Shown: piece after piece, positions 7,314-60,273 of the stretch
Position numbering within the stretch: the stretch's first letter is position 1
Layout of the letters: each line of letters begins with the position of its first letter
From: a virus
Taxonomy: Duplodnaviria > Caudoviricetes
IMG/VR virus record: IMGVR_UViG_3300020577_008405
Location: 3,069-67,068 of that record
Length of the DNA stretch: 64,000 bases
Direction: 5' to 3' (one strand)
Program-made: the position numbers and the translations under genes
Notes under the pieces: model-generated
Told to the model about the DNA's origin: nothing
What the model saw: only the letters and a program-made list of their open reading frames with translations
Database searches by the model: none

Positions 7314-7614
7314 AAAGCCTTTTAGAGATCCGGATCACATTAGTAAAAGAGGTGTTTGGTATTTCTGGAGCCCAGAGTGGGTTCGGGGTACAGATTCAAC
7401 AAATAAGTCTTTCGGTCGAATTAAGGCTATTAAGGAATACAATACGGTCAATCTTTATATGCAGAGTAAAGATGGAAATCTAACGTATATTCAAGGCAGT
7501 ATTCAACAAGAATTTAAGGATTGGCACGAGAAGCGAAAGATTGACTATTTCTTTTTAGCTGATGAGCTTGATCCAGATGCTCTTGATGACATTATTCTGT
7601 CTTCTGAGAGTTAA
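7273..7614 (+). CDS. Hypothetical protein
   Basis: GGAG RBS before ATG 7273 (shorter than track ORF). Confidence 0.6.
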   Translation: MPNKKQKKLYTSPEKPFRDPDHISKRGVWYFWSPEWVRGTDSTNKSFGRIKAIKEYNTVNLYMQSKDGNLTYIQGSIQQEFKDWHEKRKIDYFFLADELDPDALDDIILSSES

Positions 7615-7616
7615 TC

Positions 7617-8102
7617 TTGAGTGCGATTATTGTAGCAATTGTATTGCTAGTTGTAATTATCGGCATTGCAGCTATTTTTATGGTTCCAGCATTTCTTCGC
7701 CAGAACATTCCCTGGCGAGTTTTACCAGGAACAGCAGTCAAATATCATGCCTTAGTTCCAATTTCTGAAGCTGCGCTTAAGGAAGCATATCTTGAAGCAC
7801 TTGTTCAGCTACGGACTCATACTGATTTCATGCCTGCAACTTTATTTAAAGTTGCAAATGAGTTACATATTGTTGTTCAAAATGTTAAAGATTGGAATTC
7901 ACCGATGCATGGGAGTAAGGTAGCCGGCATTGCCGATGGATTCACAATTTATATTGGAGTAGACTTTGCGGCATTACTCCACGAAATGGCACATGTTGCT
8001 GAATTTGTAGATGGCAGCATTGATAATGCTCACGCTACTTGGGTGAAGCGTGGCATTTATAAAGCCGATGATGCTTTTCAAGTTACGCTTAAAGCGAAAT
8101 AA
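7617..8102 (+). CDS. Membrane-anchored putative metallopeptidase
   Basis: N-terminal hydrophobic helix; HExxH (LLHEMAH). Confidence 0.6.
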   Translation: MSAIIVAIVLLVVIIGIAAIFMVPAFLRQNIPWRVLPGTAVKYHALVPISEAALKEAYLEALVQLRTHTDFMPATLFKVANELHIVVQNVKDWNSPMHGSKVAGIADGFTIYIGVDFAALLHEMAHVAEFVDGSIDNAHATWVKRGIYKADDAFQVTLKAK

Positions 8103-8111
8103 GTGACACTG

Positions 8112-8801
8112 CTACGGTCGACTATTACAGCGACTAATACGAAAAAGAAGTCTATTTACTAATTCATCTTTTTCTTGAGTTGTAATAGGAGTAGCGAGAT
8201 GAGTCAAACGATTTTTACGAAAAGCTGTACGGTCAATTGGTTCAATAATTTTATCTGCTAATCCAAGTTGACATGCTTCTTCTGCAGAAAGATATAAGTC
8301 TCGTTGACAAACATCTTGCCAAAATGATTTTGGCATTTTGCTATTAGATGCATAAATATCATATAGCTTGTCTTGAAGACGTACAGCTTCTGCAAGTTCA
8401 ATCTTAGTATCTGTATGGGTTCCTTTGACGCTTTCAGTGCCATCATGAACCATGACAGTAGTATTGGGGAATAGGTATCGTTCATCACAAACACACATAA
8501 TCCATGTGGCACTACTTTGAATAATACCACCACCAAAGAATTTTACTGGACAAGGACATGATAGAATTTCATCCACCAAACGCAACATGGCGTACGGATC
8601 CCCGCCTCCAGAGCTCATATATAGCTCAATGGGTTTATGAGGGTCATCGAATGTCAGAAGGTGTAGCGCGCGCACACAATGCTCTATCGAACGTGTGGTT
8701 ACTTCTCCGATGTCTTCCAAAGTTGGGTCTGTGCACACACCGAAGTATATACGACGCTGATCGAAATCTAAGCCAGTCTCTAAAATATTATCGTCGGTCA
8801 T
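8112..8801 (-). CDS. clpP: ClpP-like protease subunit (copy 1)
   Basis: YMSSGGG, QSSA (Ser), VMVHD (His), RDLYLSAEEA...GLADKII (Asp). Confidence 0.9.
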   Translation of the reverse strand: MTDDNILETGLDFDQRRIYFGVCTDPTLEDIGEVTTRSIEHCVRALHLLTFDDPHKPIELYMSSGGGDPYAMLRLVDEILSCPCPVKFFGGGIIQSSATWIMCVCDERYLFPNTTVMVHDGTESVKGTHTDTKIELAEAVRLQDKLYDIYASNSKMPKSFWQDVCQRDLYLSAEEACQLGLADKIIEPIDRTAFRKNRLTHLATPITTQEKDELVNRLLFRISRCNSRP

Positions 8802-8829
8802 AGAAGTATTCTACAAGGAGAAAACATAG

Positions 8830-15888: not shown

Positions 15889-17283
15889 ATGTCATCGCGC
15901 CTTAGAGGAAAGCTGGAAAAAGACCTTCTTGACAAGGAATTTGTTCCGGTTGAAGTAAAGAGTCAGTGTCTTTCTACAGTAATTTATGAGTGTTGCACGA
16001 AGACACACCAGTTTATGGGTGCTGTGCTGCAAAGTCTCACTATCAATTATAGTCATCAGCTGCCCACTGCAGGCATTCTGTTCAATACGGATGCCAAGCA
16101 CTGGGAAATGCTTATCAACCCATACTTCTTTTGCCGCAAGCTCAATGCTGAGCAGCGCAAAGCAGTGTTGCTCCATGAGTTGAGCCACATTCTCCACAAG
16201 CATCCGCTTCGCGTTCCGTTTCTTAAAATTGCGATGCGTAAGCGTGTTCTGATGAACATTGCGGCTGATATGGCTATCAATCAGTTCATTAAGAATATCC
16301 CTGATGGTTGTCCGCAGTGTACGCCTTATGACCCGGACCATCCGGTGCCTTGCCCGAATGAGATGTGCCCTGGTCGAGGTATCTTCTTGCGGGACTTCTA
16401 TGACATTGATGATAAGACTAAGGCTCGTATTCCGTGGAAAGCTAATCAGACCATGGAGCATTATTACGAGAAACTGCTTACTCGCTTCGAAGATCCTGAT
16501 GAAGATAAGGATGGAGAAGGTAATGCCGGTGGTGGTGCTGCAACCGGCGATCTTCCTCAGACCATTGATGAGCATCTTTGGGACAATGGCGCGGTTGAAG
16601 AAAAAGACATGCTGGATGCCACTGAGGAGTTAGCGAAGCGTGCGATGGTGAAGGCACGTCTTGATTATGACTCTCTGCCAGGTTCAGTGCGTGAACTTCT
16701 TGAAGACATTAAGTCGCGCCGAGCTGAGCTCAATTATAAGCAACTTATTATGTCGGCAATGAAGCGACATGCGTCAGGACACGATCGTGACTTCACCTGG
16801 ACTAGACCGTCTAAGCGATATGGAAATAAAGCGCGCGGAACTAAAGTTGGACAGTTGCCTAAGCTTCATAATTTTATCGACACGTCTGGGTCTATTTCAA
16901 TTGAAGAAGCCAACGGCTTCCTTGACGTTGTGGACCAATTCCTTCGAGTCGGTAGTCGCAAATGTGACTTGGGATTCTTTCACACCGAACTTTATAAAGA
17001 TGACAAGTATAAAATGGGTACCAAAGTTGCCCGAGAAGACATTCAAAGCGGTGGAACTGATCTCACACCGGTAATGAAGCGAATTCTGGATCAGAAGCCT
17101 GATTTGAGTGTTATTCTCACTGATGGATGCTATGGTGACGTGCGTTGCGAGGAATGGATGAAGCCTGGCGAGAAGTTCCCTCAGGTTCTCTTCGTTATCT
17201 CCAAGGATGGCACGACTGATCACCCGTTGAAAAGATTCGGCGAAACAGTTAAGATACCTGATTCAGCTACGTTTAAGAAGTAA
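15889..17283 (+). CDS. Metallopeptidase-like + VWA domain protein (DUF2201-type)
   Basis: LLHELSH, AADMAINQ, MIDAS DTSGS, GGT, TDG. Confidence 0.9.
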   Translation: MSSRLRGKLEKDLLDKEFVPVEVKSQCLSTVIYECCTKTHQFMGAVLQSLTINYSHQLPTAGILFNTDAKHWEMLINPYFFCRKLNAEQRKAVLLHELSHILHKHPLRVPFLKIAMRKRVLMNIAADMAINQFIKNIPDGCPQCTPYDPDHPVPCPNEMCPGRGIFLRDFYDIDDKTKARIPWKANQTMEHYYEKLLTRFEDPDEDKDGEGNAGGGAATGDLPQTIDEHLWDNGAVEEKDMLDATEELAKRAMVKARLDYDSLPGSVRELLEDIKSRRAELNYKQLIMSAMKRHASGHDRDFTWTRPSKRYGNKARGTKVGQLPKLHNFIDTSGSISIEEANGFLDVVDQFLRVGSRKCDLGFFHTELYKDDKYKMGTKVAREDIQSGGTDLTPVMKRILDQKPDLSVILTDGCYGDVRCEEWMKPGEKFPQVLFVISKDGTTDHPLKRFGETVKIPDSATFKK

Positions 17284-17284
17284 T

Positions 17285-17404
17285 ATGGAAGTCACGGACA
17301 GATGGCGTAGATATGTGTCTGTCCGTGACTTCCTAAGTATGCTATATGTCTTAGAATTGATTTCAAAGAATTCTTATTGGGCAGCAAAAAGCGCGTCAAG
17401 GTAG
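17285..17404 (+). CDS. LxL-motif microprotein (39 aa)
   Basis: MEVTDRWRRYVSVRD-FLSMLYVLELIS-KNSY... Confidence 0.65.
   Translation: MEVTDRWRRYVSVRDFLSMLYVLELISKNSYWAAKSASR
17287..17333. repeat. Perfect 16-bp inverted repeat inside microprotein 5' end
   Basis: GGAAGTCACGGACAGA / TCTGTCCGTGACTTCC. Confidence 0.9.
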
Positions 17405-17407
17405 ACG

Positions 17408-17527
17408 ATGAAAGCAACAAATAAACACAAATCGTCTGTTACAGAAATTGATGTTGCTTATATGCACAAGCGACAGCTAATAAGATTTATGCGACTGTTA
17501 CGATTAACAAATAAAATTCTTTTATGA
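17408..17527 (+). CDS. LxL-motif microprotein (39 aa)
   Basis: ...HKRQ-LIRFMRLLRLTN-KILL. Confidence 0.55.
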   Translation: MKATNKHKSSVTEIDVAYMHKRQLIRFMRLLRLTNKILL

Positions 17528-17718
17528 ATCGAAATAGTAAATCATTAGATTGGCTTTCACTTGACTCTGAAGCTTTAGTAAACTCTACTTTTCGTTTTTT
17601 CGCTGTCTTACTTACAGTTAAACTTATAACTGCAGATACCTTTTATTCTATGGGTACCAATCGGTTAATTGAAAGATTAATCAATAGTAAATTTCCTTAC
17701 AATACTATTGTGAAATAA
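17524..17718 (+). CDS. LxL-motif microprotein (64 aa)
   Basis: ...STFR-FFAVLLTVKLIT-ADT; ATGA overlap. Confidence 0.6.
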   Translation: MNRNSKSLDWLSLDSEALVNSTFRFFAVLLTVKLITADTFYSMGTNRLIERLINSKFPYNTIVK

Positions 17719-22128: not shown

Positions 22129-22312
22129 ACTTTGTATATGTGGTCATTTGTGGGCTGACTATTATGACTGTTCATATTGTCTTCATGAAGAATGCTGTTG
22201 CGGACCATGTACAGAATGTGGAGTACAGTTTGTGGAAGCTCCAGTGAATCAGGGAATTTGCCCTAAATGTAAAGTAGAACTTAACTCTAACTCGGAGAAA
22301 ACATGCGATTAG
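22118..22312 (+). CDS. Small Cys-rich protein
   Basis: Multiple CxC/CxxC pairs. Confidence 0.55.
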   Translation: MSNELCICGHLWADYYDCSYCLHEECCCGPCTECGVQFVEAPVNQGICPKCKVELNSNSEKTCD

Positions 22313-23004
22313 TAGAAGGAAAGCTAGGCCGCCGCAATAATGAAGATAGTGAAGAAAGCGAAGCAGTGTCACAGCCGATGGTATTGAATGAAATTCTTGA
22401 TGAAAATGGCCCAATTTGGGTCAATAAGTTCACAGAAGATTCTGCTCGAGCTTTCGTTAAGCAGCTTCATTATCAGAGCCGGCGTGACACGACCGCTCCT
22501 ATCTTAGTTTACATTGATTCTGATGGCGGCGAAGCTTACGCTCTACTAACCATGATTGCTGCTATTGAGCAAGTTCCCAATGAGATTATCACCGTAGCTC
22601 TAAGTAAGGCTTTCAGCGCAGGTGCTGTCTTACTTGCTTGTGGCGACGTAAGATTCGCCAGTGAACATGCCACAATTATGTTACATGAAATCAGTGCAGG
22701 CGCTGTTGGACATATTGATGACATCAACGTCCAACACGCTAGCATTACTAAACTGAATGAAAAAATCATGAAACTGATGGTGAAAAAAATTAAGTTTAAG
22801 GGTGGAGCAGTTGCCTTTAAGAAGCTTCTTTCTGGTCCTCGAGATCTTTACTTAGACGCCGAGGAAACCAAGAAGCTTGGACTTGTAGACCATATTGGTA
22901 TTCCGATGTTGTATAAGAATGTAACAATTCAACACGTCTTGTCGTCAAACCCTCGTAAGGATCCCGATGAGTCACCTTCTAAGAAAACCAAAACTTCGTC
23001 TTAA
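22303..23004 (+). CDS. clpP: ClpP-like protease subunit (copy 2)
   Basis: YIDSDGG, AFSAG (Ser), IMLHE (His), RDLYLDAEE...GLVDHI. Confidence 0.9.
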   Translation: MRLVEGKLGRRNNEDSEESEAVSQPMVLNEILDENGPIWVNKFTEDSARAFVKQLHYQSRRDTTAPILVYIDSDGGEAYALLTMIAAIEQVPNEIITVALSKAFSAGAVLLACGDVRFASEHATIMLHEISAGAVGHIDDINVQHASITKLNEKIMKLMVKKIKFKGGAVAFKKLLSGPRDLYLDAEETKKLGLVDHIGIPMLYKNVTIQHVLSSNPRKDPDESPSKKTKTSS

Positions 23005-28252: not shown

Positions 28253-28506
28253 GTGTTTGTGTATTTATTGTAGTAGTTTTTCGTTGGTGGTTTTTTGAGT
28301 GGTTACTTGGAACTAAGCGAATGCTACTTTTAGATAGTTTGTTATTTACTATTGGTGCTGCAATGTTTTTTGCTGACCCCAAGAGTGGATTTTTTAATTA
28401 CCTTGTAGGTAGTTTTTGTGTTTTTATCGCATTACACTCAAGCATTCGTTATATGCGATATGACAATTTTATTAAAGGAATTAAGGATGGAAACGCTAAC
28501 AAATGA
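28246..28506 (+). CDS. Small multi-pass membrane protein
   Basis: Three hydrophobic segments. Confidence 0.55.
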   Translation: MLSVCVFIVVVFRWWFFEWLLGTKRMLLLDSLLFTIGAAMFFADPKSGFFNYLVGSFCVFIALHSSIRYMRYDNFIKGIKDGNANK

Positions 28507-29218
28507 ACAATTTGAGAAAGTTGAAGAATTAGATTCTGTAATTGAGGGAGTACAGAATCTAAAAGAGAAACTTGCGCACTATCAACTTAATAGTGTTTAT
28601 TTGTTTGAGCGAATTGATTACTTCAACCCTAAAAACACGTGGGTTGAAAAAACCCACACGGGATTCCCTATCAAATACAAAGTTGTTTATATATCAAAAA
28701 CTGGCGTACCTTATCTACGACGTATTTCTGTAGCTGGAAATCCAGTTGGTAATGCTTTTATTCCACCAGAAGCACTTGCGATTCAAGCTTTAACAAATGT
28801 AACTAAAAATGAAACCTTGTTAAGCGGGAATTCAATTGTTGCTCGTTTTATCCCTGACCCAGAGCAACTTGATGCAATTCTTCTTCAAGAAGAATTTGAT
28901 CCTATGGAGCAACATAGAAAAAAGTCTCAACTTTTTAATGAGATCAATAAACACAATAAATCAGTCTTAGTCCGTACTGGTTCTGATTACAACAGTATTG
29001 CTACGTTTTTTAAGAACTTGCAACCTGGTGATAAGTTTTGGACTTCTGTAGAAAAACAGTTTGTTATTCAATCAGTTGTTAAAGTTAATCGTGAGTATGT
29101 AATTACTTGTACTGATCACAATCAAGCAACTGTCGAATTTCGTTTCAAAGATTTTATGTATAAGCGGCTATATTCTGCTCAACCGCGATCTTTCCGCAAA
29201 GAGACTCGAAGTGAATAA
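28487..29218 (+). CDS. Hypothetical protein, paralog of 34114-34866
   Basis: YLRRISVAG, RFIPDPE, LQPGDKFW. Confidence 0.75.
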   Translation: METLTNEQFEKVEELDSVIEGVQNLKEKLAHYQLNSVYLFERIDYFNPKNTWVEKTHTGFPIKYKVVYISKTGVPYLRRISVAGNPVGNAFIPPEALAIQALTNVTKNETLLSGNSIVARFIPDPEQLDAILLQEEFDPMEQHRKKSQLFNEINKHNKSVLVRTGSDYNSIATFFKNLQPGDKFWTSVEKQFVIQSVVKVNREYVITCTDHNQATVEFRFKDFMYKRLYSAQPRSFRKETRSE

Positions 29219-29375
29219 CAAACTGAGACCTGAAAAAATACGTCGAAAAATAGGTTATCTTCGACATATGAATGCACGAAATCCTACATCTGGAGCAAAT
29301 AGAAATACTTGGACTGTGTTTTGGATGATCTTATATAAGTTAAAATTAACTACTAAACTGCATTACCACTTCTAA
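29211..29375 (+). CDS. LxL-motif microprotein (54 aa)
   Basis: GTG start overlapping upstream stop; FWMILYKLKLTT. Confidence 0.65.
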   Translation: MNNKLRPEKIRRKIGYLRHMNARNPTSGANRNTWTVFWMILYKLKLTTKLHYHF

Positions 29376-29408: not shown

Positions 29409-29840
29409 GTGTCCACACTGCCGAATGTAGTTTCTACTCCCGTTGAGCCGGTTTCTGATGAACAGAAGGAATTTCTCGCTGAGGCTGAAGTTATGGACCT
29501 CGGACCCATCAAAGGCAAGACGTATGTTGTTGCTGTTGGTACGGGTGATCCCAACAAGGTGAAGTTTCTTTGTTCAACAATTCACGGTCCTTACGATTTC
29601 ACTGAGATGTGCCAAGAAGTTGGCGAAATGTGGGTTCAGCATCAGCATCATGCTAAAGTAATCATCATGGAAAAGGATCCTAAATCTCGTGTTCTTTTGC
29701 TTGATGCGAACACGATTGATTACATTGAAGCCCACTACGTAGACATTATCATGGAAGAGACGTTGGCTGGTTTCCAAGATAAGGAGTTTACGTGCAGCGC
29801 TGGCACTATCGAAGAAGCTCCTTCTGAAGAAAAGAAGTGA
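29409..29840 (+). CDS. Hypothetical acidic protein
   Basis: AAGGAG RBS, GTG start. Confidence 0.75.
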   Translation: MSTLPNVVSTPVEPVSDEQKEFLAEAEVMDLGPIKGKTYVVAVGTGDPNKVKFLCSTIHGPYDFTEMCQEVGEMWVQHQHHAKVIIMEKDPKSRVLLLDANTIDYIEAHYVDIIMEETLAGFQDKEFTCSAGTIEEAPSEEKK

Positions 29841-29841
29841 C

Positions 29842-29988
29842 ATGACCACAACGAGCCAATTACTACGATGGTTACATATGGCTCATTTTCTTTCATTTAT
29901 TCGGACTATAAAGTTAATTAGAAATCACACTGGTACTGAAGCATTAATTCTGGAGTATAGACGTATATGTCCGCCTCTAGAACCATAA
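29842..29988 (+). CDS. LxL-motif microprotein (48 aa)
   Basis: FLSFIRTIKLIR. Confidence 0.6.
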   Translation: MTTTSQLLRWLHMAHFLSFIRTIKLIRNHTGTEALILEYRRICPPLEP

Positions 29989-30152
29989 CTTCAAAAATTC
30001 TTTTAGATAGTCATCTTAAAACATTTAATTGGTTTTTTTGGATTTTGAGGGAAACAGGTCTTATAAAGAAAATGACCTTCTATGAGATAACTCATAATAC
30101 AGCTAAAGAATTTTATGGTGCGCGCATCACTTCAACACTTAAAAGCTTTTGA
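29967..30152 (+). CDS. LxL-motif microprotein (61 aa)
   Basis: FFWILRETGLIK. Confidence 0.65.
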   Translation: MSASRTITSKILLDSHLKTFNWFFWILRETGLIKKMTFYEITHNTAKEFYGARITSTLKSF

Positions 30153-30240
30153 TTATCTTCTTTGGTGTATATTTAGATTAAAATTAATAAGCAAGAAGAG
30201 TATGGATGACACATATTCGCGTTCGCGCTTTTTAAGATAA
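30115..30240 (+). CDS. LxL-motif microprotein (41 aa)
   Basis: LLWCIFRLKLIS. Confidence 0.65.
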   Translation: MVRASLQHLKAFDYLLWCIFRLKLISKKSMDDTYSRSRFLR

Positions 30241-30244
30241 AGTT

Positions 30245-30377
30245 ATGACTAGCTCACTCAAATCAGAACAATGGTTGTATTTTGTGCGTTTTTTTCCGAT
30301 CACTTATCTATTTAAAACTAATTGATCCCGTAACGAGTAGTATTTCATTAAAGAAAGCACATAATCGTACTCTTTAA
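30245..30377 (+). pseudogene. LxL-motif microprotein frameshifted at a T7 run
   Basis: Removing one T from 30289-30295 gives MTSSLKSEQWLYFVR-FFRSLIYLKLID-PVTSS... Confidence 0.55.
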
Positions 30378-30383
30378 AATAAA

Positions 30384-30542
30384 ATGACTCGGGAACAATT
30401 AGTTTTGGCAGATTATTTTTTGTCACTTGGTGTGCTTTTAGGACTCTTTTCTCGTAAAGCTTCAAACACAGCCTGGTGGAGAGTGCGTGATCGAATGGCA
30501 CGCAATGAGCCTGGATTAGGTAAACTCCATGAAAGACTTTAA
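30384..30542 (+). CDS. LxL-motif microprotein (52 aa)
   Basis: FLSLGVLLGLFS. Confidence 0.55.
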   Translation: MTREQLVLADYFLSLGVLLGLFSRKASNTAWWRVRDRMARNEPGLGKLHERL

Positions 30543-30699
30543 AAAACTATCTCGTCGTGATCAGCATTCTTGGATTGATGTTATGGATAGTTATCTTATG
30601 TTCTGCTGTAAACTTAATCTTATTTCAAGCGAATGTAATGCAGCTTGTTGGGATTTTGTGGTTGATAAGTATTTAACAAAGGCAAGAAAATATGACTGA
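30529..30699 (+). CDS. LxL-motif microprotein (56 aa)
   Basis: YLMFCCKLNLIS; overlaps orn start. Confidence 0.6.
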   Translation: MKDFKKLSRRDQHSWIDVMDSYLMFCCKLNLISSECNAACWDFVVDKYLTKARKYD

Positions 30700-31213
30700 T
30701 TATCTTTGGGCTGATTGTGAAATGACTGGGTTGGACAATAAAAACTGTCGAATTATCGAAGTTGCATGTATCCTCACTAAGGACGATCTTGTTCCTTATA
30801 GTCAATTTGAAGCTATTGTTTATCAAAATCCGCACGTTGGATGGGAACAAGTAGCTAAGGAAATGCATAAGAAGAGTGGTCTTTTTGATTTAATTCAAAA
30901 CGAAGGATTAGACGAGCGTGGTGTAGTTGCTGAACTTGTGTTTTGGCTTAAAGGCAATGTTGGTACGAATTTAGTTAATCTTGCTGGCAATTCTGTTCAC
31001 TTTGATCGTGGTTTTCTAATTGAACAATGGCCGGAAATTAAGCCCTTTTTGTCGCATCGTCATCTTGACGTTAGTTCATTCAAGATTTATGCAGAAGGAC
31101 AAGGAATTAAGAAGTTTAGTTCCACCTTGCCTGCTCATCGAGCTATGGATGACATTGAACACTCGATCAAGGAGTTTAAGTATTACTTAAGTGAATTAAA
31201 GAAGCTCCCATAA
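30692..31213 (+). CDS. orn: Oligoribonuclease (DEDDh)
   Basis: WADCEMTGLD, AGNSVHFDRGFL, HRHLDVSS, HRAMDDI. Confidence 0.9.
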   Translation: MTDYLWADCEMTGLDNKNCRIIEVACILTKDDLVPYSQFEAIVYQNPHVGWEQVAKEMHKKSGLFDLIQNEGLDERGVVAELVFWLKGNVGTNLVNLAGNSVHFDRGFLIEQWPEIKPFLSHRHLDVSSFKIYAEGQGIKKFSSTLPAHRAMDDIEHSIKEFKYYLSELKKLP

Positions 31214-31221
31214 GGAACAAC

Positions 31222-31728
31222 ATGACAACAGTCCTTACATCTTTTCTTATATCTTTAGTTCCTTTAGACATGAAAGTGTCTACTTGGCCACTCGAAGGTA
31301 TGAATGGAGAACTTAATAATATTGCTTACATGGAGTCATATTATGGGACTTATGTCAACCATGAACCACATGTTCGTGGAGCGTTTCATACTGCTTTTGG
31401 TTCGCTAGGACTAAAACCAGTTACTGCTCATGATCAGTATTTGAAGTCCCCAAGACTTCAAAAGCAATTTCCGGGTCTTCAAGATGAAAAAGTTTTCTTG
31501 CAAGAGTTTTGGCGCAATCGTTTACTTTATGTGCAATGTGCCAACTTTCATTGGTATTATTTACGATCAGTGACACCTACATTAGCGAGAGCTGTTTATT
31601 CTTGGCGATGGGGTTTGACTGCTTCTAATAATGCAACAGATGAGCAGATTGCAACTGATTCATATACGGCTAAATATGCCATACTCACGCAACGATATAT
31701 CGATGCAAGAACCATCTCCAAGCGTTAA
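31222..31728 (+). CDS. Hypothetical protein, possibly lysozyme-fold
   Basis: AAGGA RBS; IAYMES resembles the SLT catalytic Glu motif (weak). Confidence 0.5.
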   Translation: MTTVLTSFLISLVPLDMKVSTWPLEGMNGELNNIAYMESYYGTYVNHEPHVRGAFHTAFGSLGLKPVTAHDQYLKSPRLQKQFPGLQDEKVFLQEFWRNRLLYVQCANFHWYYLRSVTPTLARAVYSWRWGLTASNNATDEQIATDSYTAKYAILTQRYIDARTISKR

Positions 31729-31861
31729 TGGTATATATCCACCATACTTAGCTTATGCATATTTAATTAACTTTTATTGGACTCTTCATACATTAAAGTT
31801 AATGTCAGATTCTGTTTTTACTTTAGCTAAGCAAAAAGTGTTTGAAAAATATTTATGGTAA
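31703..31861 (+). CDS. LxL-motif microprotein (about 52 aa)
   Basis: FYWTLHTLKLMS. Confidence 0.6.
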   Translation: MQEPSPSVNGIYPPYLAYAYLINFYWTLHTLKLMSDSVFTLAKQKVFEKYLW

Positions 31862-32877
31862 CTCTACTTACAAGAGACGAATTTCGCAATGGTGTATTTG
31901 CTCGTGATGGGCATAAATGCGTTATTTGTAAACTACCTGCTCAAGACGCTCATCATATTTTAGAGCGACGACTTTGGCCTGATGGTGGATACTACTTAGA
32001 TAATGGAGCAAGTCTTTGTGGTGAACATCATATACAAGCCGAACAGACTACTCTAAGTTGTCCTGAAATTCGTGAGAAAGCGGGTATTGCTAAGATAGTA
32101 TTACCACCTCACTTATATCGTGATCAAGAGTATGACAAGTGGGGAAACCCTATTCTCCCTAATGGAACTAGGTTAAGAGGTGATCTTTTTTCTGATGAGA
32201 GCGTGCAAAAGATTCTGCAACCTGTTTTATCACTTTTCACGCATCACGTCAAATATCCAAGAACCTATCACGTCCCCTGGTCACCAGGAATGACAAAAGA
32301 TGATAGGGCCATGCCTACGGATGGGCCCTTTATTGGACAAGAAGTAGTGGCAACTCTTAAGATGGACGGAGAGAACACAACTATGTATCGAGATTATGTT
32401 CATGCTCGATCATTAGTTTATGAGCCCCATCCATCAAGAAATTGGGCAAAAACTATTCATAGTCGGATTAGCCATGAAATCCCCGAAGGTTGGAGGATTT
32501 GTGGAGAGAATCTAGCAGCAGTTCACAGCATTGAATACAAGGATCTTCCTAGTTATTTCATGATTTTTAGCATTTGGAATGACAAGAATATTTGTCTTTC
32601 TTGGAAAGAAACAGTTGAATGGGCTCAACTTTTAGACCTTCCAACTGTGCATGATTTTTGGCAAGGTACATATAACAATGAAGGATATGGAATCCGTGAA
32701 GCGTTTAGTAACAATTACGCTTCTACTCATGAAGGATATGTGATTCGACTAGCTGGATCCTTTCCTTATTCTGAGTTCCGTAAAAGTGTAGGCAAGTATG
32801 TGCGTAAAAACCATGTACAAACTCATGGGCATTGGATGCGGCAAGTAATGCGGCTAAATGGTTTAGCTAATGCCTAA
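31855..32877 (+). CDS. HNH-domain / ATP-dependent RNA ligase fusion
   Basis: CVIC..DAHH..NGASLCGEHH; KYPRTYH, KMDGEN, CGENL, EGYVIR, KYVR. Confidence 0.85.
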   Translation: MVTLLTRDEFRNGVFARDGHKCVICKLPAQDAHHILERRLWPDGGYYLDNGASLCGEHHIQAEQTTLSCPEIREKAGIAKIVLPPHLYRDQEYDKWGNPILPNGTRLRGDLFSDESVQKILQPVLSLFTHHVKYPRTYHVPWSPGMTKDDRAMPTDGPFIGQEVVATLKMDGENTTMYRDYVHARSLVYEPHPSRNWAKTIHSRISHEIPEGWRICGENLAAVHSIEYKDLPSYFMIFSIWNDKNICLSWKETVEWAQLLDLPTVHDFWQGTYNNEGYGIREAFSNNYASTHEGYVIRLAGSFPYSEFRKSVGKYVRKNHVQTHGHWMRQVMRLNGLANA

Positions 32878-32971
32878 ATAGGATAGTGTTAATCCAGAAG
32901 TACGAGTAAGAAAATTTTACCTAACAATAGCAGTTTAAAGATAAAGAATATAAAAATTAACATTAAGTAAA

Positions 32972-33139
32972 ATGCTACTCACTCACTTAGCCATTAAGTC
33001 TCGACTAACGGCATCTAAAATAACAATGTTACAGACAACTGTACTTTTCTTATGGATGCTACGTATACTACATTTAATTAGCATTGATACAAATTGGTGC
33101 GCGCGGAATTTAGTTTACGATGAGTACAAATACCTATAA
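32972..33139 (+). CDS. LxL-motif microprotein (55 aa)
   Basis: FLWMLRILHLIS. Confidence 0.65.
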   Translation: MLLTHLAIKSRLTASKITMLQTTVLFLWMLRILHLISIDTNWCARNLVYDEYKYL

Positions 33140-33296
33140 TCGTCATATCGTATTTCCCTTTGGAGGCTTTCAATATGCGAGCTTTCGAAGATTGCGCGCT
33201 ATGTGGCCTTCGGGCGGCGATGCACAAATTTCTTTTATAGGGTTTTTAACAATCTTATCTAGGTTAGGACTGTGTTCTGCAAGGCATTTAGACTAA
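33120..33296 (+). CDS. LxL-motif microprotein (58 aa)
   Basis: FLTILSRLGLCS. Confidence 0.6.
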   Translation: MSTNTYNRHIVFPFGGFQYASFRRLRAMWPSGGDAQISFIGFLTILSRLGLCSARHLD

Positions 33297-33305
33297 AAGG
33301 AATAG

Positions 33306-33857
33306 TTGTTAATGACAATACTGTTAAATAAAGTACCTGTTCTAGATAAAGGATTTGTAGCTACATACGATACTAGTTGTAATAGCACGAAGTTAAATGA
33401 ACTTGCCGTTGAGTTCTATAAACGACTCGATGGCAAGTTTCTTTGTGAGAATTCTTCACTAACAGTGATGATGAAATGTCCGCTGTTTATTCAACTGAAT
33501 CTCTCACAATTCAATCTACGAATTACTAATTTACCAAATATCGGCTCAGATGAACTAGAGTGTTATTGCCCTAATGCAGGTGAGATTGGTAGTGGTGATT
33601 TTCAGGTTGGCATTGATATCTCAGAAGACATGAAGCGGACATCATCTGCATTATTGATGAACCATAAGGCTTATCAAGCTGATGGCTGTGATCGCTTTAT
33701 GTCACAAATCCTAACACCTATCAACACTTACACAACCATTCTTGTTCATGGATTGTATAATGATTGGAGCAGGTTTATTTCACAAAATAATGCACCTGCC
33801 CCAATTGCAGCTTATATCATTGCTGTGGGGCAGTTGCTTAAAGCTGAGTGGCAATGA
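33306..33857 (+). CDS. Degenerate ThyX-like protein
   Basis: VLDKGFV N-term, KCPLFI, ILTPINTYT; lacks RHRx7S motif. Confidence 0.55.
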   Translation: MLMTILLNKVPVLDKGFVATYDTSCNSTKLNELAVEFYKRLDGKFLCENSSLTVMMKCPLFIQLNLSQFNLRITNLPNIGSDELECYCPNAGEIGSGDFQVGIDISEDMKRTSSALLMNHKAYQADGCDRFMSQILTPINTYTTILVHGLYNDWSRFISQNNAPAPIAAYIIAVGQLLKAEWQ

Positions 33858-34117
33858 CAAAGAAACCAACCCAAAAAACAGAAAAAGGCCCAGTTCTAGA
33901 AAAGACTTACGAAACAGAGATTGAATTCATGTGTCCTGTTAGAGGCTTAGTTAAGCAAACAGTGACGATTAAGAAATATCAAAGTCAAGATGAAGCTGGA
34001 CATCCAGTAGAAAACATTCGCCACAGTAGCAGTGTCGCTGATCTACTAGATAGGAAACATTCAGGACTCCCTCTGTTTGAGGATGAAGAAGATAACGAGG
34101 ATACTACCTTTTCATGA
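33848..34117 (+). CDS. Hypothetical protein
   Basis: Overlapping ORF in gene run. Confidence 0.65.
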   Translation: MAMTKKPTQKTEKGPVLEKTYETEIEFMCPVRGLVKQTVTIKKYQSQDEAGHPVENIRHSSSVADLLDRKHSGLPLFEDEEDNEDTTFS

Positions 34118-34866
34118 AATACGAAATTACGCAAACTGATCGCGACATAATGGAACGCGATATGCATACTGATCGAACGCTTAAACACCTTCGAAATCTT
34201 TCATTTTATAAATTTACTATTGGCGATGTTTTGATTCGCGAAGAGAAGTATCGAAAACATGGTTCGCATGATGAATACGAATGGAAGCCAATGACTGCTT
34301 CTTGTGGATTAAATAACAAATATGTTTATATATTTGAAAATGAACTTGGAATTGGTTATATTCGTCGTTTAAGTGTAAATGGACGCAAATTTGTTGATCA
34401 TCCGATGTGTGTTACCACTTTTGATCCTGACCAAACCAGGTTTTCTTTAGATCCAGAATACGCTGATCATATGCTTTTATCAGGCGAGGATGATGAATTC
34501 GATACCCAAACTCGTTATGAAACACTTAAGAAGAAGAAGGAACGTGTTAAGCGCATGAATGCAAAGCTTGCTCTTAAACTTGATACTAGCAATGAATTAA
34601 GTGTTGTGACTTGGATGAAAAGTCTTAAGCCAGGTGATACACTTTGGTGGGGCAATGGTCTTAGTAATATTCGTAAAGAACCCCTTGTTGTTCAATCTGT
34701 AACAACGAATACTAATTCATGGGGTTATAACCAAAATACCCACACTCTAAAATGTGTAGATGTTAATAATCCAACTGGATATCCTCACACATTCCAGTCA
34801 AATTATATGGGACCATATTGCTTCTTTACAACACGACCACATTTCGCTGATGAGGTACTTGACTAA
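34114..34866 (+). CDS. Hypothetical protein, paralog of 28487-29218
   Basis: YIRRLSVNG, RFSLDPE, LKPGDTLW. Confidence 0.75.
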   Translation: MKYEITQTDRDIMERDMHTDRTLKHLRNLSFYKFTIGDVLIREEKYRKHGSHDEYEWKPMTASCGLNNKYVYIFENELGIGYIRRLSVNGRKFVDHPMCVTTFDPDQTRFSLDPEYADHMLLSGEDDEFDTQTRYETLKKKKERVKRMNAKLALKLDTSNELSVVTWMKSLKPGDTLWWGNGLSNIRKEPLVVQSVTTNTNSWGYNQNTHTLKCVDVNNPTGYPHTFQSNYMGPYCFFTTRPHFADEVLD

Positions 34867-53181: not shown

Positions 53182-53324
53182 CACTTTCTTTTCTTCATCT
53201 TGACATTGTGAGTCATTTTATGAAATAGCACAATGAATTCACCAAGAACAGGATTGGAAATCAGTCCTAATCGTCGGAATACAATAAAAGGCGCCATATA
53301 CATGCGTACATGCTTATATTTCAT
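53181..53324 (-). CDS. LxL-motif microprotein (47 aa)
   Basis: TAATG coupling; PFIVFRRLGLIS. Confidence 0.65.
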   Translation of the reverse strand: MKYKHVRMYMAPFIVFRRLGLISNPVLGEFIVLFHKMTHNVKMKKRK

Positions 53325-54970
53325 TACAATTTCCAGCGCCCATCAATCATATTCACTAATTGACGTGAACCATCGCTATAAACAACACAGTGAGTTTGCA
53401 TCCAATTGCTCGGACCTTGGTTATAACCAAGTTTAAGGAAAGAAGAAGTCCCTACTGCAAATGCCCCATGCCAAATACCCGGACAATGACTATGACCGGT
53501 GACAGATAAGCCATATGACTTACGCATATTCTTGATATTACCCTTAGAACCTGCAGGGCCAATATCGCCATGAGCTCCTAATTGAATACCTGCTACTTTA
53601 AAATCTTCATCTCGTTGTAGCCAACGAATATTTTCGGCCTTAAGACCAACTTTTTCAGCACCAGTCTTAATTGGATCTTTTCCATCTAACATTGCCTTAG
53701 CGAGATCTAGAGAGAAATAATGATTTTGGGGATCGTGAGCATACTTAGCATACCGTAAGTAATCTTTTGACAAAAACTCATCATGATTAGACTTGATGAC
53801 AACTACTTCATCAACTTGTTTTGAGAACCAAGTTAAATCGTCACGAAGTCCAACAAATTCCTGCTCTAGAGACGGAACACCATTCATAAAATGCATTGTC
53901 TTAACGACAATATTATGCTCTTCGTGATGGTTAATAGACTTACCGTTAAAGGTATCGTGAAGAGCAACTTTCTTAGGTTTAAAGAAACCTAGCATCTCTC
54001 CTGTACACTTATAAACCATAGGATCGGTTTCACCTGAATGCCAATCACCACACACCAAGACTTCAGGAGCTTCGTCTACAATCCTGCCATCTGGATGATA
54101 GCGCTTACCAAAGTGAACAAAACTACCTTCTGCATTTAACATTTGAATCTGTGTGTAACCATATAAAGCATCATCAATAATGTTTACAAAAATTGCACCC
54201 ATCACATGATGCTTGTCGGCGATATAAGCTGTTCTCTCAGACATGTAATTTGATGTCACATAATTAGGTACTGTAATGGCACCTGTAGTCATCATGACAT
54301 GTGGCAACTTCTCATTAGACGTTGACTCAAGAGTCATACTCTGTTTAGGAGATGCGAACACAAAGCTACCTTCACGCTGACCAATATCACCAAGACCAGT
54401 AGTCGGATTGATTTGCTTTGCAGAGAGCTTAATGGTACTAATGAAGAAATTAGAATTAAGGTGAGTATCCTCAACAACTAAACAATCCTTAGCTAATCGC
54501 TGATCAATTGTGCCATATCCACCTCGATTATAAGTTTTATTATGAGCAGGATCAGAGGCAACTAAGACAAGCATTGCTGCTTTGTTCTGTTTGCAGAAAC
54601 TTTTTAAACTAGCATGAAAACCAGAATGTACAGCACATCCAGTAACTGCAGTAGTGATAATAAACTTTTTGTGCTGTTTTACTACCTTATGAAGTTTATC
54701 ACTTAAATCACTTTCATCCATTAAATCAACAATCTCAACATCAAAAAACTTTTTCGGAAATTCTTCGCGGGCTTCTTCTTCTAATTTTCCTAGCGAAGAA
54801 AAGTGATGCTTAACAGAATCTTTCGTGTGACCACGCTCGCATAATTCATCCATTTTAGGAGCACGGGAGAGCTCTTCAAATAGATCTGAAAAATCTACGA
54901 TGATTTGGTGCTTCTTGTCTTCACTTTCTGTCTCGTCTTTAACGGACTTCGGCGTCTTTGATTTACTCAA
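53324..54970 (-). CDS. Calcineurin-like phosphoesterase-domain protein
   Basis: GDWH, LHD, SNHD, HGD, GHSH. Confidence 0.75.
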   Translation of the reverse strand: MSKSKTPKSVKDETESEDKKHQIIVDFSDLFEELSRAPKMDELCERGHTKDSVKHHFSSLGKLEEEAREEFPKKFFDVEIVDLMDESDLSDKLHKVVKQHKKFIITTAVTGCAVHSGFHASLKSFCKQNKAAMLVLVASDPAHNKTYNRGGYGTIDQRLAKDCLVVEDTHLNSNFFISTIKLSAKQINPTTGLGDIGQREGSFVFASPKQSMTLESTSNEKLPHVMMTTGAITVPNYVTSNYMSERTAYIADKHHVMGAIFVNIIDDALYGYTQIQMLNAEGSFVHFGKRYHPDGRIVDEAPEVLVCGDWHSGETDPMVYKCTGEMLGFFKPKKVALHDTFNGKSINHHEEHNIVVKTMHFMNGVPSLEQEFVGLRDDLTWFSKQVDEVVVIKSNHDEFLSKDYLRYAKYAHDPQNHYFSLDLAKAMLDGKDPIKTGAEKVGLKAENIRWLQRDEDFKVAGIQLGAHGDIGPAGSKGNIKNMRKSYGLSVTGHSHCPGIWHGAFAVGTSSFLKLGYNQGPSNWMQTHCVVYSDGSRQLVNMIDGRWKL

Positions 54971-56241: not shown

Positions 56242-56313
56242 TCACAACCTATAAAACAACTTCAATTTATATAGTATATACCTAAACCTCATCATCCTGT
56301 GATGGTCAGTCAT
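56242..56313 (-). CDS. LxL-motif micropeptide (23 aa)
   Basis: MTDHHRMMR-FRYILYKLKLFY-RL. Confidence 0.65.
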   Translation of the reverse strand: MTDHHRMMRFRYILYKLKLFYRL

Positions 56314-56318
56314 GTAAT

Positions 56319-56432
56319 TTATTTATAAGGGTTAAACAGTTTCAACTTGTAAAGTAAAAATTTTAATTTTAACATTTTCTCTTGGGGAGAAAGATATTTT
56401 ACATAAGGGTCTAAGGTGTATGGATAAGACAT
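56319..56432 (-). CDS. LxL-motif microprotein (37 aa)
   Basis: LKFLLYKLKLFN. Confidence 0.7.
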   Translation of the reverse strand: MSYPYTLDPYVKYLSPQEKMLKLKFLLYKLKLFNPYK

Positions 56433-56437
56433 ATAGT

Positions 56438-56539
56438 TTAGCTAAGTTTACCACATAATTTTAATTTATAAAGAATATACCTAAATTTCATTTTCCAATG
56501 GCGAATCGCCATATTCTTTAATACTTCACTCCAATCCAT
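56438..56539 (-). CDS. LxL-motif microprotein (33 aa)
   Basis: FRYILYKLKLCG. Confidence 0.7.
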   Translation of the reverse strand: MDWSEVLKNMAIRHWKMKFRYILYKLKLCGKLS

Positions 56540-56544
56540 TTTTG

Positions 56545-56626
56545 TGGGTGTGGTAGGGATCGAACCTACTTGACCGAAGTCGACGGATTTACAGTCCGTT
56601 GCCTAGTCCATTAAGGCGGCACACCC
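56545..56626 (-). tRNA. tRNA-Tyr(GTA)
   Basis: GGGTGTG/CACACCC, ACGGA-CTGTAAA-TCCGT, long variable arm, GTAGG-TTCGATC-CCTAC, A73. Confidence 0.92.
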
Positions 56627-56633
56627 GTTAATA

Positions 56634-56774
56634 TTACTTAGAATTGAGATACAGTTGCTGTAATTCGTTATTACTTATAAAACGATAATTCTTATTAAGA
56701 TCTAACACATATAGCATCCACATAAAATTCTGAATAACTCCACGATCAACCCATTTCCATTTCATGGTTTTCAT
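56634..56774 (-). CDS. LxL-motif microprotein (46 aa)
   Basis: FMWMLYVLDLNK; sits between two tRNA genes. Confidence 0.7.
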   Translation of the reverse strand: MKTMKWKWVDRGVIQNFMWMLYVLDLNKNYRFISNNELQQLYLNSK

Positions 56775-56776
56775 AA

Positions 56777-56849
56777 CGATCTCTAAGAGAATTGAACTCT
56801 TATTTACTAGTTGAGCAAACTAGTCGCTCTACCGTTGAGCTAAAGAAGC
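56777..56849 (-). tRNA. Atypical tRNA-like gene with 9-nt anticodon loop
   Basis: GCTC-AACGGTA-GAGC, ACTAG-TTTGCTCAA-CTAGT, AAGAG-TTCAATT-CTCTT; weak acceptor. Confidence 0.6.
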
Positions 56850-59019: not shown

Positions 59020-60273
59020 TCACTCTCGAGTGGGAGTATTGATAGCCTCGATGAGAAGATTATACTTTAGGTAATCTAGAACCTCTAAAGAAGTTCCGGA
59101 AAATATCGCAACACTTTGTGCGCGCCTATTAATCGCTATAATGCGACTATCACTCAATGCGGTTCCTGTTCCCCTTTGCTTCAAACGTTCAAGCACAGTT
59201 TCCTTTGTTTCAATAACAAAAATTGGCTTGATATCGAACTTGTCAGTATTTCGTTTAATGAAAGTAGAAATGCCAATCGACAAATCATAAATTAACGGTT
59301 TATTGAGTTTACTAAGTTTTAGCAGTTCATCTACATGGCTCTTTTTATCTGCAGAATCTGATGACAAATAAGACACATTGTTTAGCTGATTACATATCCA
59401 TGACTTACCAGAACCCGATACTCCGCATATTAGATACAATATTGGTTTAGTAACTAAAACCTCATCTTTATATTTCCATGTTAAACCGCCAGCGCTTTTA
59501 TATCGGCCTTGAATATTCTTAATGATAGAGGATCCTGGGCAACCAACAGTGCTAGCTGCTTCCTTAATAGAAGGAAATTCCCTACCATCACTAGCAATAA
59601 CCTCCTTTTGTTGAGTTTTATAAAACTCGGCCATTTTAGCCTGAGTCTCAGGAGAATTGAGCGAGGTTTTTACCGCCAATGAAATTTGCTTCTTAAGCTC
59701 ATCTGTAGTATTTGCTTTAGCTCTTTCTGATGCTGCTTGTCGATGCTCAGGATCCGCCCAGTATTCTTTCCGTTTTTCACTAATATTAGTTCTAAAGTCT
59801 TCGTCTTCCCACATTGCTTTCGATTGCTCAGAGCGAGCAATGGCAAGCTGAGGATCAGTTTTAAATCGCTGCTTATGTGAAGAAGACATTTTGGCTCTAA
59901 CTTCTTCAGGCACAATGGCTCCGAGTTTTGCTTGTCGCATTTTTTCTATTGTCTCCGGAGCAAAGAAATGTCCATTTCCTCCTTCTTTTAAATTGTAACC
60001 ATTGGGAGATAAAGTATTTCGACTTTCAATAAAGAACCTTTCAAGTTTATCTAATTCATCCTGAGAAGAAGCTTTAGCTAATTCTTCAATAGAAAAATTC
60101 TCTTCTCCATATTTCTTAATAGCATCTCTAATTGCCTTACAACCAGAACTTGGAAAAGTATGTTCTATAAATCGTTGTTCTAAATCTCTTATTGTTTGAC
60201 CAATATAAACTTTATTATTGAGCTTATTAGTTATCTTATAAATAATCATAGAGCAATTATACCCCACAATCAT
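59020..60273 (-). CDS. GIY-YIG/NUMOD3 homing endonuclease fused to P-loop kinase-like domain
   Basis: IIYKITN..NKVYIGQT, NGYNL; CGVSGSGKS. Confidence 0.85.
   Translation of the reverse strand: MIVGYNCSMIIYKITNKLNNKVYIGQTIRDLEQRFIEHTFPSSGCKAIRDAIKKYGEENFSIEELAKASSQDELDKLERFFIESRNTLSPNGYNLKEGGNGHFFAPETIEKMRQAKLGAIVPEEVRAKMSSSHKQRFKTDPQLAIARSEQSKAMWEDEDFRTNISEKRKEYWADPEHRQAASERAKANTTDELKKQISLAVKTSLNSPETQAKMAEFYKTQQKEVIASDGREFPSIKEAASTVGCPGSSIIKNIQGRYKSAGGLTWKYKDEVLVTKPILYLICGVSGSGKSWICNQLNNVSYLSSDSADKKSHVDELLKLSKLNKPLIYDLSIGISTFIKRNTDKFDIKPIFVIETKETVLERLKQRGTGTALSDSRIIAINRRAQSVAIFSGTSLEVLDYLKYNLLIEAINTPTRE

Follow-up and report, generated by a model that had tools for sequence, protein, structure and literature searches.

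A tandem array of paralogous microprotein genes with variable unit number upstream of an exonuclease gene in an uncultured phage

The window that was analysed comprises 64 kb out of a virus record of 67,068 bp and has a GC content of about 36%. The capsid protein of this phage is distantly SPO1-like, with an identity of about 32%. In the interval 29842-30699, six small ORFs on the plus strand, which are called u1 to u6 here, tile about 860 bases upstream of an exonuclease gene (Table 1). All six had been listed in a preliminary description of the region that was made from the sequence, and they were found again at the same positions and on the same strand, including the frameshifted fourth. 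In this unit, the N-terminal part is encoded in the first of two ORFs, and the motif and the C-terminal part are encoded in the second ORF, in the +1 frame. The array is part of a plus-strand block that encodes NT5C, a ThyA-like enzyme, a dCMP deaminase, two RNA ligases, a nucleotidyltransferase, ClpP and an HD protein, and the neighbouring genes with a Pfam annotation encode metabolic or RNA-repair enzymes. The gene for the ClpP-type protease subunit (22303-23004; PF00574, E 1.2e-27) shares this strand block with the microgenes.

Table 1. Features of the microprotein gene array and its surroundings. Positions refer to the 64-kb window.
Feature	Position	Strand	Basis or remark
Upstream anchor, conserved 143-aa gene, function unassigned	29409-29840	+	Query of the related-locus search
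Accessory island between two core genes	29841-33305	+	Distant loci without the segment
u1, 48-aa microprotein gene	29842-29988	+	Starts 1 nt past the stop of the upstream 143-aa gene
u2, 61-aa microprotein gene	29967-30152	+	22-nt overlap with u1
u3, 41-aa microprotein gene	30115-30240	+	38-nt overlap with u2
u4, frameshifted unit	30245-30377	+	Split ORFs 30245-30325 and 30282-30377
T7 homopolymer breaking u4	30289-30295	+	Sequence; alignment with L004
u5, 52-aa microprotein gene, most conserved unit	30384-30542	+	ORF and profile match
u6, 56-aa microprotein gene	30529-30699	+	14-nt overlap with u5, 8-nt overlap with orn
Downstream anchor, RNase T/Orn-type 3'-5' DEDDh exonuclease gene	30692-31213	+	PF00929, phrog_192

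The units are very tightly spaced. It had been claimed that most of them overlap the next one, and this was true for three of the five internal junctions (overlaps of 22, 38 and 14 nt), whereas the junctions u3-u4 and u4-u5 have gaps of 4 and 6 nt, respectively. On the plus strand of the array, 83% of the sequence is covered by ORFs with a length of 40 aa or more, versus 23% on the minus strand. Such a coverage was reached in only one of 5000 first-order Markov simulations (chance about 2e-4), and, thus, the tiling is not due to chance. The annotation of the downstream gene as orn was also verified: its product is an RNase T/Orn-type exonuclease according to PF00929 (E 9.5e-18) and phrog_192 (E 8.6e-21), and it is 34% identical to phage genes annotated as orn (tblastn). 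The gene is probably translationally coupled to u6.

The coding character of the units was analyzed on the protein as well as on the DNA level. For the annotated frames of all units together, the pN/pS values were 0.38 in comparison to the related locus L004 and 0.43 in comparison to L005 (both are described below), while the two alternative frames had values of 0.69-1.38. The values of the single units ranged from 0.08 to about 1.2; u5 (0.14-0.40) and u6 were the most constrained units, u1 had values of 0.37-0.52, and u2 was near neutral (0.8-1.2). Judged from these values, purifying selection on the units appears to be only moderate overall. A codon-usage log-likelihood that was trained with the 36 longest ORFs gave the units values between -0.02 and +0.28 per codon. 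For real genes it was 0.37±0.15 in the correct frame, versus -0.59 and -0.93 in shifted frames, and, thus, the scores of the units are above the out-of-frame values and below those of typical genes, i.e., the units are coding-like, but atypical.

The codons for the leucines of the conserved core vary from unit to unit, and the core is also kept in a GC-richer contig of 172,623 bp, which contains the related loci L002 and L006, as D-Y-L-L-Y-L-G-x-x-L-x-L-W. The conservation thus sits in the protein and not in the DNA. DNA repeats between the units were not found beyond imperfect matches of 10-37 nt, in agreement with what had been noted before. An Rfam search of the array gave no match at E values up to 1, and the stability of its RNA fold is not unusual (z -1.26). 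Seven promoter-like sites were detected in 5.5 kb, versus 18.9 expected, with one weak match within the array. No terminator-like hairpin was found inside the array, and neither promoters nor terminators have a regular placement between the units. An exact-sequence look-up revealed that u2, u5 and u6 are present among publicly predicted proteins, while u1, u3 and the intact ortholog of u4 are absent. As far as sequence comparisons can tell, the units are real genes.

The units have a core of about 35 residues in common, F-L-x5-L-x-L-I-S...A. In the alignment, an aromatic hydrophobic helix (D/N-Y/W-F-L-x-x-Φ-x-x-L-x-L-I-S) is followed by six variable residues and then by A-Φ..Φ. For the whole family, the core was defined by alignments as aromatic-F/L-L-x5-L-x-L-[IW]-[ST]-x6-A. 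According to the preliminary description every unit carries one copy of the motif. A profile was built from 15 members outside of the array only, i.e., from dispersed copies of this genome and copies from two other phages, and all 1338 stop-to-stop frames of the genome were searched with it. The claim was borne out, as u5 (E 5.6e-7), u3 (3.1e-6), u2 (6.8e-5), u6 (5.3e-4) and u1 (6.4e-4) were the top non-training frames, directly below the training sequences. The 3' half of u4 ranked next after these five units (E 0.13). With the profile of the whole family, the 3' frame of u4 had an E value of 2.2e-8, and its intact ortholog in L004 an E value of 7.9e-11.

The genome contains 13 clear members of the family (E <1e-7 after iteration), and the array is their largest cluster. 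All 13 are located on the locally coding strand and in gaps between larger genes; the units of the array have these traits and also the typical length of about 40-65 aa. Further family members in the vicinity of the array are encoded at 31703-31858 and 32972-33136. Two additional family microgenes, 17285-17401 and 17524-17715, directly follow an HNH endonuclease gene (15889-17283), which is part of the early block. Weaker matches to the family were found at 29211-29375 and 33114-33293, and on the minus strand at 53184-53342 and 56245-56819; the weak members at the last position sit between tRNA genes. The first of these weaker matches is an ORF of 54 aa just 5' of the 143-aa gene, with a basic N-terminus that is followed by the helix-1 part of the motif only (FWMILYKLKLTT). 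It has homologs in L002, L004, L005, L007 and L008, and it may be an old, divergent member of the family.

The preliminary description had proposed to compare the locus in related contigs with regard to gain or loss of units. Related loci were retrieved with the upstream 143-aa protein, and 17 loci were obtained with identities of 53-99%. Whole units were indeed gained and lost: the slot before orn is occupied by six units in the window, by five, four or three units in relatives, or by an unrelated small gene. In L004, the anchor protein of which is 99% identical, u1, a hybrid of u2 and u3, an intact u4, u5 and u6 are present. The body of u2 (about 121 nt) is missing, and the first nine codons of u2 are fused in frame to u3. 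The next example is L005 (90% identity, on a 160-kb contig), which contains u1, u2, u5 and u6, and is devoid of u3 and u4 (233 nt). The junction lies at a CT(T)TAAAA microhomology; u2 gained a new stop, and u5 is intact. The orthologous units have identities of 92% (u1), 68% (u3), 92% (u5) and 95% (u6) in L004, and of 79% (u1), 74% (u2), 90% (u5) and 72% (u6) in L005. The indels between these close strains are thus precise with respect to the units, and the neighbouring ORFs stay intact.

More divergent arrangements were seen in additional loci. In L008 (84% identity) three units precede orn, two of which are mutually closest. In L007 (91%) an unrelated gene of 88 aa occupies the slot. L002 has one unit before orn, and four or five units after a homolog of the 168-aa gene; the four that were seen by the profile (L2_a-d) are mutually closest. 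The corresponding second junction, between the 168-aa gene and the HNH-RNA ligase gene, contains one unit in the window (31703-31858) and in L004, and three units in L005 (L005:6994-7518), and it forms another small array with a variable number of units. Taken together, these comparisons show that the array evolves by birth and death, with whole units turning over between strains. No relative has one long gene at this place, or a non-coding element that could be recognised; both had been named before as contents that would speak against an array. A single long gene with readthrough was rejected also for the window, because stops are present in all frames and the relatives keep separate ORFs.

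The comparison with L004 also clarified the state of u4. At the position of the T7 run of the window, L004 reads C+T5 (6 nt), and its u4 ortholog is an intact ORF of 43 aa (L004:2730-2861). By this alignment, u4 of the window is the version with one additional T, i.e., a +1 frameshift, of a gene that is intact in a near-identical strain. The break could be due to decay, population heterogeneity, an assembly error or slippage. Programmed -1 frameshifting at the T7 run was rejected, because the shift that is needed to restore the frame is +1, and thus classical -1 frameshifting does not apply to u4.

On a larger scale, the array is part of a variable segment. In seven of the nine distant loci (L003 and L011-L016) the homologs of 29409-29840 and of 33306-33857 directly abut or overlap each other, while in L010 and L017 they are separated by gaps of 400-600 nt. 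The abutting of the flanking genes in the seven loci identifies 29841-33305 (about 3.4 kb) as an accessory island, the right border of which is the gene 33306-33857 (183 aa). The island contains the array, orn, the 168-aa gene, the HNH-RNA ligase gene and further microgenes, and it is hypervariable.

Whether the units arose by insertion or by duplication was judged from their borders and their relationships. The array had been interpreted as a cassette array that grows by unit insertion. The tandem arrangement of paralogs and the gain and loss of units support one part of this view, but the insertion mechanism could not be upheld, as no flanking repeats, promoter or stem-loop cassettes or attC-like sites were detected. 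The ends of the units carry no attC-like sites, scattered inverted matches of 10-23 nt have no regular placement, and a promoter plus stem-loop element repeated at the unit borders was not found. PeSL-like as well as integron-like cassettes were therefore rejected. The body of u2 is kept in the window and in the more distant L005, and thus its loss in L004 is a deletion by parsimony. The difference in u3 and u4 cannot be polarised with the loci that are available. Units of the L002 and L008 arrays have their closest paralog beside them in the same array, which argues for local duplication and divergence and not for the import of cassettes, with the reservation that these paralog similarities are weak and between short sequences. 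Local duplication, divergence and deletion at microhomologies would thus fit better than cassette insertion. A bolder idea, to which we give little credence, is that the family is a self-propagating, protein-coding mini-element, a microgene that uses microhomology-mediated recombination to copy itself into intergenic junctions of the phage and builds an array at each landing site. Its products would then be a repertoire of small inhibitors that is quickly renewed under the pressure of an arms race against the defences of the host.

The distribution of the family turned out to be very narrow. A HMMER scan of 1.84 billion cluster representatives yielded 13 proteins at E values up to 1e-3, all from this phage group, and nearly all of them are the units themselves or close variants. 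No cellular homologs were found among these representatives. A word-indexed search of 5.8 billion proteins gave nine matches, and no cluster member bears a name. The 90% cluster of u5 comprises six variants on at least 18 contigs, and one protein (P0003) that is 91% identical to u6 is encoded on a 125.6-kb contig. Copy numbers per genome were counted in two whole records of relatives: a complete relative of 172.6 kb with direct terminal repeats has 12 family matches, and a complete relative of 176.8 kb has none. No family of Pfam-A, PHROGs v4 or PADLOC-DB had matches to two or more of the 33 aligned members (best E 0.0012), and a profile search of PDB sequences gave no match at E values up to 10. 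The ESM Atlas contained no usable look-alike, the locus had no blastn match in 50,697 phage records, and a search of viral contigs for related loci with orn and with u5 found none. A description of this microprotein family was also not found in a literature search. The family thus appears to be previously undescribed and limited to one small set of uncultured phages, with complete or long contigs of 160-177 kb.

The structures of u5 and u6 were modelled with AlphaFold2 using the family alignment. Both were predicted to be hairpins of two helices, which comprise residues 3-18 and 24-41 in u5 (mean pLDDT 84.4) and residues 9-28 and 34-54 in u6 (mean pLDDT 80.8, 92-94 across the turn). In both models the L-x-L-I-S segment closes helix 1 and makes the turn. 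Searches with Foldseek (PDB, BFVD) and VIA-align retrieved only generic hairpins (Z <=6.5, Foldseek E >=0.8); a helical hairpin is a fold that is uninformative on function.

The explanation that we favour, and which we regard as fairly probable, is that the locus is a co-transcribed, coupled tandem array of six paralogous hairpin microproteins, which evolves by birth and death and provides diversified small binders. Transcription would run through from the upstream gene and translation would be coupled, as is suggested by the tight spacing, the overlaps and the absence of internal signals. Each unit would encode a basic protein of 41-61 residues that folds as a two-helix hairpin, the core of which would be built by the conserved helix 1 and the L-x-L-I-S turn. 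Helix 1 and the turn would probably also serve as interface for oligomerisation or for a partner. Tails and surface positions vary from unit to unit. Units would be born by local duplication and rapid divergence, and they would be lost by microhomology deletion. The products would be small binders that are made early or in the middle of infection, each adapted to its own target in the host or the phage, with a role in host takeover or counter-defence. It is from the size, diversification, turnover and location of the units that we infer this role.

The charge of the units could point to another function. All six units are basic, with pI values of 8.4-10.9 and net charges of +1.6 to +5.6 (the median pI of neighbouring long genes is 6.8). 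Together with the Rop-like size of the hairpins, the exonuclease, RNA ligase and nucleotidyltransferase genes in the neighbourhood, and the weak members between tRNA genes, this would suit small nucleic-acid-binding proteins, i.e., Rop-like hairpin dimers, RNA chaperones or small regulators that act on RNA or DNA together with the RNA-repair and tRNA neighbours and do not inhibit host proteins. However, the basic charge is not universal, as the units of L008 and the u5 ortholog of L005 have pI values of 6.3-7.9. Moreover, the conserved positions of the family are hydrophobic and aromatic, not basic, and neither a sequence match nor a significant fold match to any nucleic-acid binder was obtained. 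Nucleic acid binding as the function of the units is thus considered to be unlikely. Rop itself, the ColE1 repressor of primer, is a helical hairpin of 63 aa that dimerises into a four-helix bundle. The units resemble it in length, in the predicted hairpin topology and in a hydrophobic face that would favour dimerisation, but it was not matched by sequence in the PDB profile search.

A location in the membrane was considered because helix 1 is very hydrophobic. The 19-residue Kyte-Doolittle mean is 1.67 for u5, and values of 1.6-1.8 were found for u5 and some dispersed members, in comparison to a membrane reference of about 1.6. Holins and membrane proteins are also among the weak viral Foldseek matches, and the units might be membrane-active peptides, involved in superinfection exclusion or similar to holins/antiholins or type I toxins. 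We think that this is improbable: the other five units have values of only 0.55-1.00 and contain Arg, Lys, His or Asp within their helix 1, the array is located among early/middle metabolism genes and not in a lysis module, and the fold matches are not significant.

The turnover of the units would also be compatible with translated, near-functionless filler that was duplicated and is kept open mainly for the translational coupling of the flanking genes and drifts to loss. The units are dispensable between close strains, u4 is broken in the window, u2 is near neutral, the codon usage is weak, and in many family members the ORF extends into the start of the gene that follows. Nevertheless, this explanation has only a slim chance, because the core of 35 residues is kept across phages with a flanking protein that is 82-84% identical and with differing GC content, the pooled pN/pS is about 0.4, and the deletions spare the remaining ORFs. 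Translational coupling by itself would give no reason for a protein motif to be conserved. Lastly, that the region, which is AT-rich (31-36% GC) and without database-annotated genes, is non-coding and that the motif is a repeated DNA or RNA signal (promoters, terminators or structured RNA) is very improbable in view of the lack of DNA repeats, of a promoter or terminator excess, of an Rfam match and of an unusual RNA fold, the synonymous codon variation at conserved residues, the frame-specific selection and the non-random tiling.

The favoured array of small binders can be compared with several known systems. In hyperplastic regions of T4-type phages, mobile PeSL (promoter-early stem-loop) cassettes have reportedly been described by Arbiol and colleagues. 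These T4 cassettes contain unrelated ORFs, each bracketed by a repeated DNA element of promoter and stem-loop that mediates shuffling. The array is similar to the small-ORF clusters of T4-type phages in that the early region of a large lytic phage holds, between its core genes, tiny accessory genes with a fast turnover, and in that the gene content of the slot differs between close relatives. In contrast to the PeSL cassettes, its units are paralogs of one family, and repeated DNA, promoters or stem-loops are absent between them. The gp37-gp60 genes of Bacillus phage SPO1 and the pre-early genes of T5 are host-takeover modules of small early proteins that are mostly unrelated and have individually known targets. 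They share with the array the dense, operon-like runs of genes for proteins of less than 100 aa in a large phage, but the units belong to one family, and no sequence similarity to those modules was found.

Two single inhibitors have a similar size of about 40-60 aa and the shape of a two-helix hairpin. The RNA polymerase inhibitor RIP of the archaeal virus ATV (7ok0_Q/7oq4_Q) was aligned with a VIA Z of 6.0 (rmsd 1.5, 42 residues aligned) and Foldseek TM values of 0.65-0.82, and the sliding-clamp inhibitor Gp168 of a Twort-like phage (7evp_D) with a VIA Z of 5.5 (rmsd 3.0, 42 residues aligned). In contrast to the family of the array, RIP and Gp168 are single-copy; the identities of 7-18% reveal no sequence relation, and generic hairpins give scores of this size. 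The two examples show that proteins of such a size and shape can act as inhibitors, and they are not evidence of kinship. A tandem multi-copy family of small proteins in large phages is known from the high-light-inducible (hli) proteins of cyanophages, which are single-pass membrane proteins with a chlorophyll-binding motif that were acquired from the host. The array shares the tandem organization, but cellular homologs were not found for its family among the scanned representatives, and the hydropathy values do not suggest a consistent transmembrane segment.

The expansion of paralogs is rare in phage genomes, which face a strong size constraint. Here, one microprotein scaffold has expanded to 13 or more copies within 67 kb, and the number of units in the array changes between strains that have flanking proteins with 90-99% identity. 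If the units were target-specific binders, the locus would be a natural library of diversified mini-binders, and new activities in host takeover or counter-defence could be sought there within a short stretch of DNA. Moreover, the family exemplifies coding capacity that is missed by standard annotation, as only three of the six units (u2, u5 and u6) were recovered by their exact sequence among public predictions.

Some further observations were made in the surroundings of the array and elsewhere in the genome. In L007, the gene in the slot before orn (L007:5424-5690) has a Cys-rich N-terminus, and a homolog is present in the island of L001 (L001:7373-7576); the size of this small gene is 67-88 aa. 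The HNH-RNA ligase homolog of L007 (L007:7591-8526) is split into three consecutive ORFs of 179, 47 and 64 aa, and it is probably disrupted or contains assembly frameshifts. The GIY-YIG-type homing endonuclease gene 59020-60273 adjoins the major capsid gene. The island is flanked by two genes for proteins of 230-270 aa without a Pfam match, 28418-29218 and 34114-34866. Corresponding genes are present in L003 (L003:5195-5953, 7445-8200 and 8146-8823), in which the homolog of 34114-34866 is duplicated. By eye, the two flanking genes of the window share motifs such as KFWTS and LDP..AD..LL, and, thus, the two genes that flank the island may be paralogs.
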